From the sequence record NC_135731.1: 64,000 nt of DNA. One strand, written 5' to 3'. The notes below the pieces were generated by a model. It was given only the letters and a program-made list of their open reading frames with translations. It searched no databases and was not told the origin of the DNA. Below, piece by piece: positions 7,257-64,000 of this stretch. Source of the stretch: a phage. Each line of letters opens with the position of its first letter. Position 1 is the first letter of the stretch. The translations under genes and the position numbers were made by a program.

Positions 7257-7262
7257 AAAAAG

Positions 7263-7360
7263 GTGCTAGGTGATGGAATCGAACCATCTATGTATTCAAC
7301 GACTACCTCGTCTATTTTCAGGATTAAAAATCCTCGCCCTTGCCAAAGGGCTTACCTAGC
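7263..7360 (-). tRNA. atypical tRNA-like element (about 98 nt; anticodon unresolved, possibly UUU)
   Basis: Perfect acceptor stem GCTAGGT/ACCTAGC, D-arm GCCC..GGGC and T-arm GATGGTTCGATTCCATC, but about 31 nt lie between anticodon stem and T-stem and CCA is not encoded. Confidence 0.35.
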
Positions 7361-7754: not shown

Positions 7755-7829
7755 TGGCACCCCGTACTGGACTCGAACCAGTGTCAACGGCTTAGAAGGC
7801 CGCTGCTTTATCCACTAAGCTAACAGGGT
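7755..7829 (-). tRNA. tRNA-Arg (anticodon UCU)
   Basis: Minus sense ACCCTGTTAGCTTAGTGGATAAAGCAGCGGCCTTCTAAGCCGT...CTGGTTCGAGTCCAGTACGGGGTGCCA; A1:U72 acceptor pair. Confidence 0.6.
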
Positions 7830-7925
7830 ACTGGGTGGCTTTCTTTTACACCTTAGCCGCCAGAAAAGGTGGGAGACCATGTTTACAATATTACACTGTT
7901 AAGCAAAGTTTGTCAAGAAAATATT

Positions 7926-8264
7926 TTAGCTATTGCTAACAGGCTGTATTTCTGTAGTAAATGGCATAAAAGGTGCTGGTTTTTCAGCCTCTTCTACTAC
8001 CACCTCTTCCTCTTCACCAAACATCTCATCATATTCTTCCTGCATTCGGTCTGCCTTATCAAGAACATACTCTGCAATGCTTTGACGAATATTTTGTTTG
8101 GTTTTCGGGTCCAACATCAGCTCTCTTAAAACTTTGTGAGCTTCTGGAACCATCGCTATAAAAGATTCCTTCATATCAAGGATGTTCTTCTCTAGCTGAA
8201 TGGCGTTGGACTCCTCTTTCAGAGGTCTGCCTCTACGGCGACGCTTTTTAGTTGTATCCGCCAT
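7926..8264 (-). CDS. hypothetical protein (basic N-terminus, acidic C-terminus)
   Basis: Track ORF 7926..8384; start re-set to internal ATG (MADTTKKRRRRGRPLK...) after the GC-rich ORF-free segment. Confidence 0.4.
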   Translation of the reverse strand: MADTTKKRRRRGRPLKEESNAIQLEKNILDMKESFIAMVPEAHKVLRELMLDPKTKQNIRQSIAEYVLDKADRMQEEYDEMFGEEEEVVVEEAEKPAPFMPFTTEIQPVSNS

Positions 8265-8610
8265 GTTTCCTCCATTATCACGTGATAGGTGGATTTTATC
8301 ATAGCAAATACTGATTGTCAAGTTCGCCGCAGGGTGGTATTCCCTGCGACTTGTCCAGCGTCCTGGACCAGCAAGACCCAACAAGTGGGTTACCAGAGGC
8401 CTATTACCCGCGCTTCGGCTCGACCTTGTTACAGGTTGGCTGGGGTCACATCGTCATGTGCTGGCTGCCCCTACCATTTTAAGTGTGGTGCACTATCAAG
8501 CCCTCTAAGGGGAACTCAGTCTTCTCCGAACCCTGTTTCAAAGCATCCGGAGATAAAGCCATCAAATTCATCTTTAAATTGGATATTCATCATGATACAC
8601 GAAAACAACC

Positions 8611-8853
8611 TCATTGTAAAGCACAAATAAATAAAACATACTTAATTTGTTTGTTATCAGGCTCAGGGTAGAAGTAGAAGATCTTGCTATCACCGATCTG
8701 AACACCACCATCCCAACAACATAGCCCATAACCTGTATTCATACAAGCTAAGTCGTTGGCAAAATCTATTGCATCATCCAGTGCACGAAATTCACCTTCA
8801 TCTTCTAAATAATCCTCATTCATGGAACGAAAAACGAGCTTAACCTTAAACAT
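8611..8853 (-). CDS. hypothetical protein
   Basis: 80 aa minus-strand ORF. Confidence 0.3.
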   Translation of the reverse strand: MFKVKLVFRSMNEDYLEDEGEFRALDDAIDFANDLACMNTGYGLCCWDGGVQIGDSKIFYFYPEPDNKQIKYVLFICALQ

Positions 8854-8929
8854 AGCATTACCTGTAGACCTCGTAAGTTAAAATTGCATCACATCATATT
8901 GCAGATCTTATCAGGTAACACTATTTTTG

Positions 8930-9139
8930 TCAACAGATTCCGGCCTTATCCTTCCTGTCTGCGTATTCTTTAATCGCAACCTCATCTGCATTAGTGACCA
9001 GGTATTCAAAGTAACTCTCAAGCTCCTCGTCAATGTCAGGAGACCAGCTCTTTTTCCTGTCAGTGTGAATTGCAGACTTGTTGAACTTATTACAGTTCTT
9101 TGCTACCGGGTTGTTCATTAAGCGCTCCTCAGCGTTCAT
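8930..9139 (-). CDS. hypothetical protein
   Basis: 69 aa minus-strand ORF. Confidence 0.3.
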   Translation of the reverse strand: MNAEERLMNNPVAKNCNKFNKSAIHTDRKKSWSPDIDEELESYFEYLVTNADEVAIKEYADRKDKAGIC

Positions 9140-9707
9140 AGTAAATTTTATTTAACATTACCTCATCTTTTGCAGAAAGAATACCGAGATATGCATCACC
9201 GAATCTACCTGCAACAACCTCTGCATGATACATCACTTCGTTAATATCGTCAAGAGTGATAACTGGATGACCGTATCTCTCTGAGTATTGTCTCAGAGTG
9301 CGATGTAGAGAGTCATCATCATAGGCAGACTTTTTAATATCGCAAACACGACGAATAGCCTTGATGTCGAAAAACCCTGTACGATACCAACCAAGAAAAA
9401 GGTTTCGTGCAGTGTCAACATCTACATCAATACCATCAAGAACCTTATCTACAAGATAGCTGTCATCCTTTGGACCTGCTTCCTTAGTGCGAATGTAGTT
9501 GCCATCTTTTCCAGGTGACAGCTCCTTCTCATCACCAACCTGCATGCCATCATTTGGCGGTGTTAACCACTTATCCGGATGCTTACGATCACGAGCGTTA
9601 GAATGATTACGCTGGAAACCCGGCTTCCACTTGAAAGTTTTCTCCATCTGTTCTTCATTCTGATAACGTTTTGCAATCTTTTCACGGTCATCTTTGCGTG
9701 GACTCAT
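9129..9707 (-). CDS. hypothetical protein
   Basis: 192 aa minus-strand ORF, no recognised motif; AGGAGG-like RBS upstream. Confidence 0.45.
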   Translation of the reverse strand: MSPRKDDREKIAKRYQNEEQMEKTFKWKPGFQRNHSNARDRKHPDKWLTPPNDGMQVGDEKELSPGKDGNYIRTKEAGPKDDSYLVDKVLDGIDVDVDTARNLFLGWYRTGFFDIKAIRRVCDIKKSAYDDDSLHRTLRQYSERYGHPVITLDDINEVMYHAEVVAGRFGDAYLGILSAKDEVMLNKIYYER

Positions 9708-10209
9708 AGCTGCCTCCTCTTCAAGTTATAGAAAAACTCACTGTATCGCTTTGTAACGAGCTTTTCTATCAAACTGGTGCGATTGCCTTACTTGGTATAG
9801 TTTATATGGCTGTGGAGCGATTTAGGGGCCTCATTGTCCGTTTCCACACATAAACTTTATCCAAACTCGCTCGGGAGGCTCTCAACCGACTCCTTACGGC
9901 GCTGGCAAGCTTTCGTCGGTGGTCCACATTAGTGCTCGGCCTTTGGCCTGCGCTATCGCTTCGCTCCCACACATGTTAACAGACCTGCATGTATGCACTT
10001 CTGTTATTGTGTGCACTATGGAGGCCAGGCATCTCGCCCCTCGTAGGCGAGTGCCAATGAAGGGCCGACACTACCTATAGAATGTAATAAATTTAAAACA
10101 TGGTACTTAGGATCTAGTATATTCTACATAAGTTAAGTATATGTACTTAGTACCATAAGTACTAGATCTTTTATTTTTTATTATTTAGTTATTTTAGTTA
10201 TATTCTTTA

Positions 10210-10295
10210 TGTGTCCGTATCACGGACAGTTAGTGTCCGTATTACGGACAGATGTGTCCGCGTGACGGGCAGTAGTGTCCGTATCACGGACAGTT
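10210..10295. repeat. four tandem palindromic iterons TGTCCGTATCACGGACAG
   Basis: Copies at about 10212, 10234, 10255, 10276 (two identical, two with 1-4 substitutions); each has inverted half-sites TGTCCG/CGGACA; AT-rich palindromic tract 10085-10200 adjacent. Confidence 0.8.
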
Positions 10296-10367
10296 AATAG
10301 TTTCTGTTCCATGGTGAACATAAAACATACAAATCCTTATAGTACAGATATTTAAGTTTTTACTGGT

Positions 10368-10718
10368 CTAACCAGTTGTTGACATTCGAATAACTTCTTC
10401 TGGTGGCAAAACTTTGGAAAATGTGCATCTTTTACCTCTCCCTTGTGTGGATGTTTCAACAACTCCTGCACATTCTAAAGTTTTAACGCACGCTGCTGCT
10501 TTTGTTTTCTTTATCCCAACATCTGCTGCAATTTTCCTTGTGCTTGGTGTGAAGTGTGAATTTCCTCCAAGCTTATACCAGTTGTGCAGGTAGCAGTATA
10601 CAATCTTGTCATACAAGTCAAGAACAACAACCTCCCCAGTTGTGTCATTCAAAACTTTTGACATAGATAGTATTTCAAGGGGGACTTTAAGATATAGCAG
10701 CTTATCCCCATCTTTCAT
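10368..10718 (-). CDS. hypothetical protein, possible DNA-binding protein
   Basis: 116 aa ORF immediately upstream (minus sense) of the iteron array; HTH-like segment TRKIAADVGIKKTKAAACVKTL. Confidence 0.35.
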   Translation of the reverse strand: MKDGDKLLYLKVPLEILSMSKVLNDTTGEVVVLDLYDKIVYCYLHNWYKLGGNSHFTPSTRKIAADVGIKKTKAAACVKTLECAGVVETSTQGRGKRCTFSKVLPPEEVIRMSTTG

Positions 10719-10765
10719 ATCTCCTGATTCTCCTTGTGTGGCAATTTTCTTTAAAATAGCAGGGA

Positions 10766-11320
10766 TTACTCCCTGCTGTCAATATCAAAACTCATTGCAA
10801 TACGGTATGCCTCTTCTAATGGTAAGAGTCTCCCCCACACATCCCAACCGACATCAAGCTGCCTGCCAAACAACTGTTGTGTGGTTCCGTGAGCATGACC
10901 GAACAGTTGGACTGATCCGTGAGGCTTTCTGTTCCACTTTGCAAACTGGTAATGGCTCATACAGATCAAATTCTTGTTGTGGCGAAGCTCGTAATAATCT
11001 ACAACCTCATGACCGAACTCTTTCATAATTCTGACAGTCGTTCTTGTGTCATGGTTGCCACGAACAAGAATAATATGTCCGTTCAACATATTTAGAATAT
11101 CTGGAAGTAAGTTGTTGATATTCTTATCATTAGTGCACGCAATATCTCCCAGGTGGAACACAGTGTCTGCAGGTGACACAACAGAGTTCCACTCGGCGAT
11201 GATTCCAGCATTCATACTATCAAGATTGTGATCATACTGAGATCTGTGTTTTTGACATGACTCAAACTCCATGACCCGCTGGTGGAGAAAGTGTGTGTCG
11301 CTTGTTACAAAGTATTTCAT
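10766..11320 (-). CDS. calcineurin-like metallophosphoesterase (putative polynucleotide 3'-phosphatase)
   Basis: Track ORF 10766..11422; start re-set to MKYFVTSDTHF; motifs DxH (SDTHF), GDIACTND, GNHD. Confidence 0.6.
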   Translation of the reverse strand: MKYFVTSDTHFLHQRVMEFESCQKHRSQYDHNLDSMNAGIIAEWNSVVSPADTVFHLGDIACTNDKNINNLLPDILNMLNGHIILVRGNHDTRTTVRIMKEFGHEVVDYYELRHNKNLICMSHYQFAKWNRKPHGSVQLFGHAHGTTQQLFGRQLDVGWDVWGRLLPLEEAYRIAMSFDIDSRE

Positions 11321-11327
11321 ACATTCC

Positions 11328-11745
11328 TCATTTAAGTTTAATGCAGTTTTTAAGTTGGCGTTCCATACGATCCACAACCTCGTCTGAAGCATGAATGCTT
11401 TTATTACCGTGGCGGTTTTCAACCACGATCACGGTATAACTATACCCATAACTGATTGCCATGTCAACATATTCCTGCACATGTTTTTCTTTTGTAAAAG
11501 TATTACTTACCACGATACGGTCGTATCCCATACGCATCATATCTTCTACGTTATCTTTGCACCATTTTGCTGCGAGTGTTAATTTACTTGCATCCCAGTT
11601 GTAATTGCCGTCATCGTCATACCAGAACATGTCGTTCTCAAAATGTGGATACAGGCCTTCTAAAGATAGCGCATTTGCCAGTGTTGATTTGCCAGACCCC
11701 GGCAGACCACGCACGATATATAGCATTTTAGACATAGCAATCCTC
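11328..11745 (-). CDS. P-loop kinase (putative polynucleotide 5'-kinase)
   Basis: Track ORF 11328..11792; start re-set to MSKMLYIVRGLPGSGKST with RBS; Walker A GLPGSGKST; about 139 aa; adjacent to phosphoesterase and RNA ligase. Confidence 0.5.
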
Positions 11746-11835
11746 CGTTTTAATTTTAATGATAGTATACCTAACTGTTTTGTTAATTTCAAGTGTTGAC
11801 ACTAGGTTATTTGTGTGGCAGGATAGACTGACAAA

Positions 11836-12771
11836 ATGACAAATGAGGAACGTATGATGAAGTATTTTAATGCAGATGACCTAGTAGACAAAGGTCTTGT
11901 AACCAGTCGGTATTATCCAGATCTTGGATTAAAGATCTATAAATATGCCAGAAAAGTATTCTACAACAATCTGTGGCATTTGTCTCCGCGTTTACTGGAG
12001 TGCCGAGGTATTGTTGTTGGCAATGAGGGGAATGTTGTGGCATGGCCTTTCACAAAAGTATTCAACTTAGGAGAAAACTCCACCAACCTACCGGACAGTA
12101 AACTTGTTACTGCGGTAGAGAAAAAGAACGGATTCCTCGGTGTGGTATCATCTCATAAAGGTGAACTGTTGTTCTCAACAACCGGGTCTCTTGATTCCCC
12201 ATATTGTAACCTCGCAAAAGAAACCATCATGGAGCAATGTGGTAATTTAGATCTTATCAAGAAGGTTATGGGCAATGAAAACATGACATTCATGTTTGAA
12301 ATTTGCCACCCTTCAGATCCGCATATTGTTCAGGAAGATCATGGCGCATATTTGATAGGTTGCAGATATAATGATTCTGGAATAATGCTACCAGAAGCAG
12401 CTTTAGACGGGATTGCCAAATACCTTGGTGCAAAACGTCCTCACACTGTGCGTGAAATTCCGTTCAGCTATGCAAAAGAATTAGCTGCAGAAACAAGAGG
12501 TGAAGGGTATATGATTCGTAAGCCTTACTACCCTTATGATCTGCAGCTGAAGATCAAGTCTCCATACTATCTGGCACGGAAGGCTGTAATGAGGGGTAAA
12601 GCTTGGAAGATTTGGGATGATGATATCTTTAAACGTGTTGACGAAGAGTTTTACGGTATGGTAAAATTTATTCGTAGCAACTATACAGAAGATGTGTGGA
12701 ATTGCTTATTAGAGCAGGAGCGTCGTGAGATACTGGACTACTATTTCCACAACGAGGACTATATGCAATGA
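11836..12771 (+). CDS. RNA ligase (Rnl-type nucleotidyltransferase)
   Basis: Nucleotidyltransferase motif I KKNGFLG, motif IV EGYMIRK, motif V LKIKS; divergent from kinase/phosphatase pair. Confidence 0.55.
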   Translation: MTNEERMMKYFNADDLVDKGLVTSRYYPDLGLKIYKYARKVFYNNLWHLSPRLLECRGIVVGNEGNVVAWPFTKVFNLGENSTNLPDSKLVTAVEKKNGFLGVVSSHKGELLFSTTGSLDSPYCNLAKETIMEQCGNLDLIKKVMGNENMTFMFEICHPSDPHIVQEDHGAYLIGCRYNDSGIMLPEAALDGIAKYLGAKRPHTVREIPFSYAKELAAETRGEGYMIRKPYYPYDLQLKIKSPYYLARKAVMRGKAWKIWDDDIFKRVDEEFYGMVKFIRSNYTEDVWNCLLEQERREILDYYFHNEDYMQ

Positions 12772-63231: not shown

Positions 63232-63469
63232 GATTTTTTATCCTCTTTGTTAATTAGTGCGGTGTTGTTCACCTTGCGATAATAAGAATAACAAGAACTG
63301 CCCGAGCTGTCAACCATTATGTAAAATTATTTTTTGGGTAGAATTCTCCAGCCGCCACCCCCTGCCAGGTTTGCAAGCTTTCACTCTCCCACCTGGTCAG
63401 TTAGGTCCTGCTAGGGCTGGCCCCGCCAGGTTGCAGCGGTTGACGCACTATGTTAGAAAAATTTTTTGA

Positions 63470-63730
63470 AAAGTGTTGACAACGGCCCCACCAGGTGGCA
63501 CAATATACATATCGAAAGGACGGCAGGCACCGGTGACGGGGGAGACAACCACCGGGGATGGGCGCTGCATAAAATGAGAACGGTTATCATTATCATTTAA
63601 AAATTTATGCAAAAAGTCCTTGCTTTCTTTGTCCTGTGTGATACTATAATAACAAGCCGGGGCAGTAGGGGCCGGGAGACAATCACCGGGCCTGCCCGTT
63701 ATTCTGCAAACGAGAATGATTATCATTCAA
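63470..63730 (+). repeat. two tandem promoter-plus-structured-GC units (possible small RNA genes)
   Basis: Unit 1: TTGACA...CACAAT then GGCAGGCACCGGTGACGGGGGAGACAACCACCGGGG...GAGAACGGTTATCATTATCATT; unit 2: TTGCTT...TATAAT then GGGGCAGTAGGGGCCGGGAGACAATCACCGGGCC...GAGAATGATTATCATT. Confidence 0.4.
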
Positions 63731-63829
63731 AATTCTAAATGAGAACTCCTCGCATTTAATAAATTTAATTAGCATGCTAATTACCCTCCGTAACAATTTC
63801 CTATAAAACAGTATCCCATAAAATATTCC

Positions 63830-64000
63830 CATATAGAAATTTTAAAAATCCATTTCTGAAAACGAAAAATCGATTTCGTCCCCAAAAATTTTAGGTCGAG
63901 AGCCGGAACGATTTCCAGAAAATCCGATTCAGAAAACGAAAAACAAATCGAGTACTGAGAAATTTATCGAGAAAAATTTTCAGAAAATTCAATCTTTGAA
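63830..64000. repeat. AT-rich tandem direct repeats at window end
   Basis: Recurring TTTCTGAAAACGAAAAATCGATTT / TTCAGAAAACGAAAAACAAATCGAG / TTTTCAGAAAATTCAA units. Confidence 0.5.

Follow-up and report, generated by a model that had tools for sequence, protein, structure and literature searches.

A candidate lambda-type iteron origin beside a gene for a small winged-helix protein in Vequintavirus phages

We identified a candidate replication origin in a 64,000-nucleotide stretch of phage DNA (sequence record NC_135731.1; the whole stretch is referred to as the window). It is composed of four tandem TGTCCG-N5-CGGACA palindromes and an adjoining AT-rich tract, and is located downstream of a gene for a 116-residue winged-helix protein (ORF79 in rV5 numbering). 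With a probability of roughly 60%, we consider the array and the adjacent tract to be a functional iteron-type replication origin of the lambda kind, judging by its likeness to known origins. The initial annotation had proposed a candidate origin or operator array, and this proposal was supported, the evidence being comparative and anatomical. No origin of replication has so far been located in the rV5-like phages, which are isolated widely and serve in typing and therapy cocktails. The candidate involves approximately 210 bp and a single 116-aa protein, and is precise and cheap to test.

The window belongs to a Vequintavirus (rV5-like) phage. A 3-kb stretch at the locus was 100% identical to Escherichia phage phiWec196 (LC739542.1) and 97-99% identical to approximately 110 further Vequintavirus genomes (rV5-like myoviruses). 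Genes on the minus strand occurred in the order P-loop kinase (AAA_33), metallophosphoesterase, ORF79, a 660-nt gap, ORF77, small ORFs and a tRNA cluster, and no convincing gene was found in the 660 nt between ORF79 and ORF77. In addition, 18 GenBank records (MG0656xx) named 'Campylobacter phage', with Campylobacter jejuni as the host, were ~97% identical to E. coli Vequintaviruses in this region, which suggests that they are mislabelled or contaminant genomes. Features of the locus are as follows.

9129..9707, minus strand: ORF77.
9735..10084, no strand: GC-rich non-coding island between the AT-rich tract and ORF77, defined by composition; its membership in the module is uncertain.
10085..10211, no strand: AT-rich tract, candidate DNA-unwinding element (composition, stability, conservation, inverted repeats).
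10165..10177, plus strand: 13-mer GATCTTTTATTTT, the sole perfect match in the window to the consensus GATCTnTTnTTTT.
10212..10228, no strand: iteron 1, TGTCCG-TATCA-CGGACA, the copy closest to the AT-rich tract; arms invariant in nine genomes.
10234..10250, no strand: iteron 2, TGTCCG-TATTA-CGGACA; right arm CGGGCA in most relatives.
10255..10271, no strand: iteron 3, TGTCCG-CGTGA-CGGGCA; shows the arm polymorphism (position 15, A/G).
10276..10292, no strand: iteron 4, TGTCCG-TATCA-CGGACA, the copy closest to ORF79.
10368..10718, minus strand: ORF79, 116 aa, proposed iteron-binding initiator consisting of a DNA-binding domain only (Pfam, PHROG, hhalign).
10753..10782, minus strand: predicted sigma-70-like promoter upstream of ORF79 (TTGACA-18-TATTTT, TG-extended).

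The array (10212-10292) contained four 17-bp palindromes with 6-bp arms and a 5-bp centre (6-5-6), with start-to-start distances of 22, 21 and 21 bp. The initial annotation had described four tandem copies at about 21-bp spacing, each an inverted repeat of TGTCCG/CGGACA, two of them identical and two with 1-4 substitutions, and this description was confirmed: iterons 1 and 4 were identical, iteron 2 carried one substitution and iteron 3 carried four. When up to two mismatches were allowed, TGTCCGN5CGGACA had six matches in the window versus 0.89 expected, and none of 100 shuffled sequences reached six. Copies with no more than one mismatch numbered four, all of which were in the array, and no others were present in the 138,673-bp phiWec196 genome. 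Among the tandem repeats in this genome, the array also ranked first, at TRF scores of 110-128 compared to no more than 56 elsewhere. It begins 75 nt past the ORF79 stop codon and has stop codons in all frames, and is therefore extragenic and outside the initiator reading frame. Its position relative to the gene had to be corrected: the gene at 10368..10718 had been described as upstream of the array, but it is encoded on the minus strand, and the array lies downstream (3') of it rather than at its promoter. No DnaA box TTATNCACA was found within 7 kb of the array, and a blastn search of E. coli genomes gave no match to the array, although arrays with different centres would escape such a search. 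Sites for LexA, CRP, FNR and NrdR, judged by eye against consensus sequences, did not fit the 6-5-6 geometry. Several database records mark these repeats as 'repeat_region' with no comment. Public assemblies also break inside the array (the ends of L186, L187 and L188, and position 1 of MG065672.1), most likely through an artefact of assembly at the repeat rather than a physical genome end.

The AT-rich tract, which lies 1 nt from the array, had a G+C content of 19%, a minimum for the window and for the genome alike, whether measured over 60, 100, 125 or 150 bp. Its nearest-neighbour duplex stability was also the lowest within the window. Thus, the AT-rich stretch noted earlier beside the repeats corresponds to the genome minimum. 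The palindromes reported in it were also recovered: the tract contains two GATC sites and imperfect inverted repeats, including those of the GTACTTAG/CTAAGTAC type, whose 11-nt arms (10100-10110 and 10146-10156) were 91% complementary. Folding of the tract as single-stranded DNA was no better than that of shuffled sequences (z = -0.98). The consensus matched by the 13-mer at 10165..10177 is the E. coli oriC 13-mer consensus of the unwinding element (Bramhill & Kornberg 1988).

On the side of ORF77, this most AT-rich tract is abutted by the GC-rich island (9735-10084), which reaches 58% G+C and is among the GC-richest 200-bp stretches genome-wide. In rV5, a 56-aa ORF78 is annotated in the region of the island, and an 18-nt deletion within the island removes one hairpin. 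Variation in the island was near neutral (79/350 variable columns in nine genomes), and its fold z-scores were only -1.9 and -2.5.

We analyzed conservation of the locus by counting variable columns in an alignment of nine Vequintavirus genomes, in some of which ORF79 was only 88% identical. Variable columns accounted for 2/48 positions in the iteron arms (twelve positions in each of four units), 0/13 in the spacers between units and 9/127 in the AT-rich tract, compared to 23/75 in the spacer between the ORF79 stop codon and the array. In codons, variability was 27-35% at third positions of three flanking genes and 4-10% at second positions. Arms, spacers and the AT-rich tract are therefore constrained approximately like second codon positions, whereas the DNA between the stop codon and the array drifts like third positions. 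The array and the AT-rich tract are under purifying selection. The five-base centres were more variable (4/20), as expected of an uncontacted spacer between half-sites. Relatives had either three or four copies of the iteron, and all differences in copy number were exact deletions of 21-bp units; three units were present in phages nimi, bov25_3, FFH2, JES2013 and V18. The sole arm polymorphism involved position 15 (A/G), which is a T/C change at arm position 3 in the orientation of the genes. This change recurred in three different copies across lineages, resulted in a C-A mismatch in the transcribed strand and was never compensated by the other arm. Half-sites read by a protein on duplex DNA, with a centre that it does not contact, account for this pattern better than selection for an RNA hairpin would.

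The product of 10368..10718 had been noted to contain an HTH-like segment, and our analysis identified this segment as a winged helix of the HTH_36/DUF6945 type. ORF79 scored 29.2 bits against Pfam DUF6945 (PF22182, cut-off 28), i.e., above threshold, and 24.9 bits against HTH_36 (PF13730, cut-off 25), i.e., just below it; its near relatives P0001 and P0003 have a precomputed PF13730 match. Weaker Pfam similarity was observed to many winged-helix families, including the CodY, LexA, TrmB and MarR types. The protein was assigned to PHROG 12838 ('replication initiation protein') and had weak matches to phrog_8102 and phrog_428 (both 'replication initiation protein') and to phrog_22534. Its closest solved relative was 4ro3, an uncharacterised 120-residue protein (E = 1.7e-5), and RepA_N initiators were matched only at E ~0.2. 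No match was found to Pfam Phage_rep_O (PF04492), against which lambda O scores 123 bits, and comparison of the ORF79 family with lambda O by hhalign gave a probability of 0.04%. Pfam also revealed no Rep_3-type match. ORF79 is composed of the winged helix only, with no C-terminal or helicase-/loader-recruiting domain detected. Its relatives included 5 proteins in a set of 5.8 billion proteins and 10 in a representative set of 1.8 billion; in both sets, all significant matches were from Vequintavirus, the rest being marginal HTH_36/DUF6945 proteins. Two remote relatives, P0011 and P0014 (the latter on a 1.7-kb contig), were encoded in tightly packed gene rows, and no tandem array was present in the 6.2 kb of DNA at the P0011 locus. 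A single-sequence AlphaFold model of ORF79 was too poor for use (pLDDT 45). GenBank labels ORF79 a 'putative transcriptional regulator', and annotation pipelines already name it 'replication initiation protein'. We regard it as quite probable, and as more probable than origin function, that ORF79 binds the candidate iteron array.

A distant homolog of ORF79, gp255 ('replication initiation protein'), was found in phage 4MG of the sister genus Seunavirus, with 35% identity over the helix-turn-helix. Its gene is located beside two 18-bp direct repeats AGCCTAnnCTCAAATTGA, 23 bp apart (L128, 1987-2175), and is adjoined by an AT-rich tract with three GATC sites. Alignment of the AT-rich tract with the 4MG intergenic region was weak and gave one common segment of 20 nt; the sequence GATCTA(G)TATATTCTAC is shared between 4MG and positions 10112-10128 of the window, but 8 of 500 shuffles did as well or better. 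The 4MG repeat locus may represent an equivalent origin with changed specificity.

We further searched IMG/VR, bacterial genomes and metagenomes for the palindrome in runs of two or three units and detected 8, 37 and 8 loci, respectively; the metagenomic loci represented in part the same lineages as the others, and one of them was from Vequintavirus. A scan of IMG/VR for single units was uninformative, as the matches listed were mostly single chance matches. In all viral and metagenomic loci except that of Vequintavirus, the array (3-7 units with a 20-25 bp period) was located inside a frame of 280-510 codons. In at least eight independent lineages, the array-bearing protein had an N-terminal winged helix and matched initiator-type PHROGs or Pfam HTH_36. 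These lineages are represented by L088/L189, by L134-137 with L192, L193 and L196, by L087 and by L190, and, among those with an assigned taxon, by L142 (Actinoplanes), L144 (Treponema), L145 (Kiritimatiellae) and L149 (Parachlamydiaceae). The PHROGs matched were named 'replication initiation O-like', 'DnaD-like helicase loader', 'replisome organizer' and 'replication initiation protein', and HTH_36 was matched in L144 and L145 with E = 1e-9 to 2e-11. Arrays in these lineages begin 25-50 codons past the winged helix, and the Vequintavirus array begins ~120 nt past the segment coding for it. The iteron units were translated in different reading frames among lineages, so the DNA motif, not the peptide, is the conserved feature. 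In most such loci, 0-45 nt separated the array from the AT-richest 40 bp, which lay downstream of it with respect to the gene, i.e., with the same polarity as in the window; for example, patches of 22-25% G+C occurred inside contigs of 61-65% G+C.

The loci with O-like and DnaD-like 'replisome organizer' genes, which come from uncultivated phages and prophages, share with Vequintavirus identical arms, the 6-5-6 geometry, a 20-25 bp period and the order of an HTH_36-type winged helix, iterons and an AT-rich patch. Their proteins also share with ORF79 the weak matches to phrog_8102, phrog_428 and phrog_22534. However, they are 280-510 aa long and have C-terminal domains, with the array forming a translated linker, whereas ORF79 has no such domain and the Vequintavirus array is extragenic. 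Similarity between ORF79 and these initiators was detected only at the level of profile comparison: when the ORF79-family profile was aligned with the N-termini of the array-bearing initiators by hhalign, the probability was 85.7% (E 5.5e-6) over the helix-turn-helix and wing. BLAST comparisons of ORF79 and ORF77 with the array-bearing initiators, and the reverse comparison with positions 9000-10800, gave only translated-iteron matches. We also considered ORF77 as a detached C-terminal domain of the initiator, but this is unsupported, as ORF77 did not match the C-terminal domains of those proteins.

Additional arrays lacked such a link. In L039/L194 and L120/L191, the array was inside a long frame with no assignable class. 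Many metagenome-assembled genomes (MAGs) of Myxococcales and Burkholderiales contained arrays of mostly 2-3 and up to 5 units, mostly with a 20-bp period, for which no initiator link was found; PHROG scans of nearby ORFs in Myxococcales/Kofleriaceae and other MAGs were empty. The motif alone is therefore not diagnostic. One Kofleriaceae MAG possessed the palindrome at at least three loci (L139 6348-6451, L150 1017-1113 and L153 2308-2344), with the centre AATAC nearly throughout, a 20-bp period and no detectable initiator gene. These arrays look like a different type of element that uses the same palindrome.

Among the closest known systems, the lambda origin has a geometry that the Vequintavirus locus matches unit by unit. 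In the lambda record, ori has four TCCCTC-N5-GAGGGA-type 6-5-6 palindromes spaced by 20, 24 and 23 bp, the first of which starts at codon 117 of gene O, immediately past the Phage_rep_O DNA-binding domain (residues 22-115), and the iterons are followed by an AT-rich stretch. Lambda O binds these iterons as dimers, and the AT-rich tract is the site of unwinding (PMC7466680). Both lambda and Vequintavirus thus have four tandem imperfect palindromes with 6-bp arms and a 5-bp centre, with a period of 20-24 bp in the former and 21-22 bp in the latter, and in both the AT-rich tract is on the side of the array away from the region coding for the DNA-binding domain. In both, the iterons start approximately where a DNA-binding domain of ~115 residues ends, ORF79 being 116 aa long. 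Transcription traverses the lambda origin (PMC7466680), and the same is proposed for Vequintavirus. [quoted passage not shown] The C-terminal domain of lambda O recruits P-DnaB, and no such domain is present in ORF79; rV5-type phages, unlike lambda, bring their own T7-like primase-helicase (PMC3606486). The iteron arms also differ (TCCCTC in lambda and TGTCCG in Vequintavirus). Our proposal is that ORF79 may work like lambda O, with no claim of homology.

Plasmid iterons are usually asymmetric and are bound by monomers of Rep proteins, which are winged-helix initiators, and iteron-plasmid origins normally include DnaA boxes. In contrast, the Vequintavirus locus has neither a nearby DnaA box nor a Rep_3-type match. 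Origins of iteron plasmids (F, R6K, RK2, pPS10 and the P1 prophage) nevertheless resemble it in having tandem sites with ~22-bp (two-turn) spacing, an AT-rich unwinding element that contains 13-mer-like sequences, and an initiator gene placed next to the origin instead of enclosing it (PMC4980987). REP/BIME elements, like the array, are short GC-rich tandem palindromes between co-oriented genes; however, they occur in many dispersed copies, whereas the TGTCCG motif was present at a single locus of the 138.7-kb genome, where it is coupled to the AT-rich tract and, elsewhere, to initiator genes.

In the mechanism that we propose, ORF79 dimers would bind the three or four TGTCCG-N5-CGGACA sites, which are two helical turns apart and hence on one face of the DNA. 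The resulting complex would distort the DNA and, aided by supercoiling, open the AT-rich tract. Transcription from the predicted ORF79 promoter, at a position matching an annotated promoter in rV5, would cross both the array and the tract and would probably help this opening. The T7-gp4-like primase-helicase and Pol A-type polymerase of the phage, both of which are encoded in rV5 (PMC3606486), would then load on the opened DNA. The missing recruiting domain could be tolerated by a helicase able to load itself once the DNA is open, which we presume by analogy with T7 gp4. We also infer binding of the array by ORF79, melting of the tract and initiation of replication at this locus. The global minimum of cumulative GC skew was found 1.5 kb from the locus, at the divergence of two gene blocks; it coincides with a switch in transcription direction (PMC3606486), and is therefore confounded and carries little weight. 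Skew analysis in the rV5 paper likewise gave only such switches and did not define the origin (PMC3606486). Against the origin reading, ORF79 is linked to initiators only through profile comparison, and winged helices form a broad class. The absence of a helicase-recruiting C-terminal domain, the lack of similarity to lambda O, the MAG arrays with no initiator link and the tightly packed gene rows around P0011 and P0014 also count against it. In addition, large virulent phages may replicate from several sites or via recombination.

The array could instead be an operator, with ORF79 acting as a regulator that binds the four sites and has no role in replication; it might block, pause or activate transcription that runs from its own operon into ORF77, the downstream genes and the tRNAs, or silence a promoter in the AT-rich tract. 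Palindromic sites suit dimeric repressors, the GenBank label and the weak similarity of ORF79 to CodY-, LexA-, TrmB- and MarR-type winged helices point in the same direction, and an array between two co-oriented genes could serve as a roadblock. However, the search for sigma-70-like promoters gave no match within or next to the array or the AT-rich tract, no half-site was visible on reading the ~100 nt upstream of ORF79 (including the promoter-like site), and elsewhere the classifiable arrays are in replication-initiator genes and not at promoters. Because the array is not at a promoter, the upstream region has no half-site and the motif recurs in initiator genes, the origin reading is favoured over an operator, which would also leave the strong conservation of the 127-bp AT-rich tract unexplained; we consider an operator rather unlikely. 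An RNA element is less probable still. Four hairpins in the ORF79-ORF77 transcript might form a REP-like stability barrier, a processing site or a platform for proteins, and the array is indeed intercistronic in a row of co-oriented genes, its stems are kept while the loops vary, and a free energy of -43.1 kcal/mol (z = -7.3) was calculated for the fold of minus-strand RNA from 10200-10305. However, tandem palindromes fold stably automatically, and the uncompensated C-A mismatch that recurs in three copies argues against selection on the hairpins. The array hairpins are not followed by a T-run, as a GC-rich hairpin of an intrinsic terminator would be, and no terminator-like site was found on either strand in 7800-12000. 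Rfam searches (at the gathering threshold for the whole window and in E-value mode for 7800-10400) gave only chance-level matches at the array, the AT-rich tract and the GC-rich island. Unlike REP elements, the motif occurs at one locus; moreover, hairpins explain neither the invariant spacers between units nor the conserved tract, and the link to winged-helix initiators elsewhere points to recognition of double-stranded DNA.

Two other explanations have no specific support and appear very improbable. One is a pac site, or another site of DNA transactions (partition-like or recombination), bound by the small winged-helix protein. Vequintaviruses package DNA by a headful mechanism and are circularly permuted (PMC8407724, PMC13211470), and must therefore have a pac site at some place; repeat arrays are a common target of small terminase subunits, and one GenBank record begins inside the array. 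However, contig ends in the array are typical of assembly breaks at repeats, ORF79 had no terminase-type match in Pfam or PHROG, and its gene has nucleotide- and RNA-repair genes for neighbours (those for a kinase, a phosphoesterase and an RNA ligase), a long way from the terminase region of rV5 (PMC3606486). The comparative link also leads to replication initiators. The other explanation, to which we assign a similarly slight chance, is a captured fragment of an O-like module (DNA-binding domain and iterons) that no longer fires, or that at most titrates or blocks initiators of competing phages with the same iterons. ORF79 does resemble an O-like gene truncated right past the DNA-binding domain, its significant matches are restricted to the genus Vequintavirus, and lambda ori fragments are reported to inhibit lambda replication in trans (PMC3349717). 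Purifying selection throughout the genus, affecting arms, spacers and the entire AT-rich tract, is at odds with an inactive relic; an interference device would not need a conserved unwinding tract, and no E. coli genome matched the array at blastn sensitivity.

Iteron origins beside or inside initiator genes are textbook knowledge. What is new is an explicit candidate origin for Vequintavirus, a layout with a domain-only initiator and an extragenic ori, and a 6-5-6 TGTCCG iteron common to initiators of phages that are very far apart. Knowing the origin and its initiator would aid the engineering of these phages, the design of shuttle replicons and the reading of sequencing coverage profiles, and would help explain how a minimal winged-helix protein opens DNA for a T7-type replisome. 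Recurrence of the iteron in initiator genes of distant phages provides a natural series for examining how initiator specificity stays or shifts. A broader reading is tentative and, in our view, doubtful: a large virulent myovirus with a T7-type replisome might fire a lambda-style origin through a bare 116-residue winged helix, with TGTCCG-N5-CGGACA as a 'pan-phage' iteron. If this joint reading were true, an origin could be opened with no helicase-recruiting domain, the primase-helicase loading itself, and the iteron would be recognised by a widespread and barely alignable clade of O-like initiators. Contigs of this clade are assigned to Actinoplanes (Actinomycetota), Treponema (Spirochaetota), Parachlamydiaceae (Chlamydiota) and Kiritimatiellae, in addition to the Enterobacteria phage analyzed here, and the protein-DNA recognition code would then be unusually conserved among replication origins.

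Several other features were observed in the window. A further GC-rich (57%), partly non-coding stretch at 8303-8554 is located upstream of, and overlaps the start of, the ORF at 7926..8384. On the minus strand, a 99-nt tRNA-like gene (7262-7360) between tRNA-Ser and tRNA-Thr is not annotated in phiWec196; ARAGORN predicted a four-base anticodon (atcc) for it, and its Rfam tRNA score was 37.5 bits. At the end of the window, the non-coding region 63300-64000 contains repeats that recur every ~132-142 bp beside another GC-rich patch, and positions 63754-63878 form the second most AT-rich segment of the genome. These repeats could be repeated promoter or small-RNA units.
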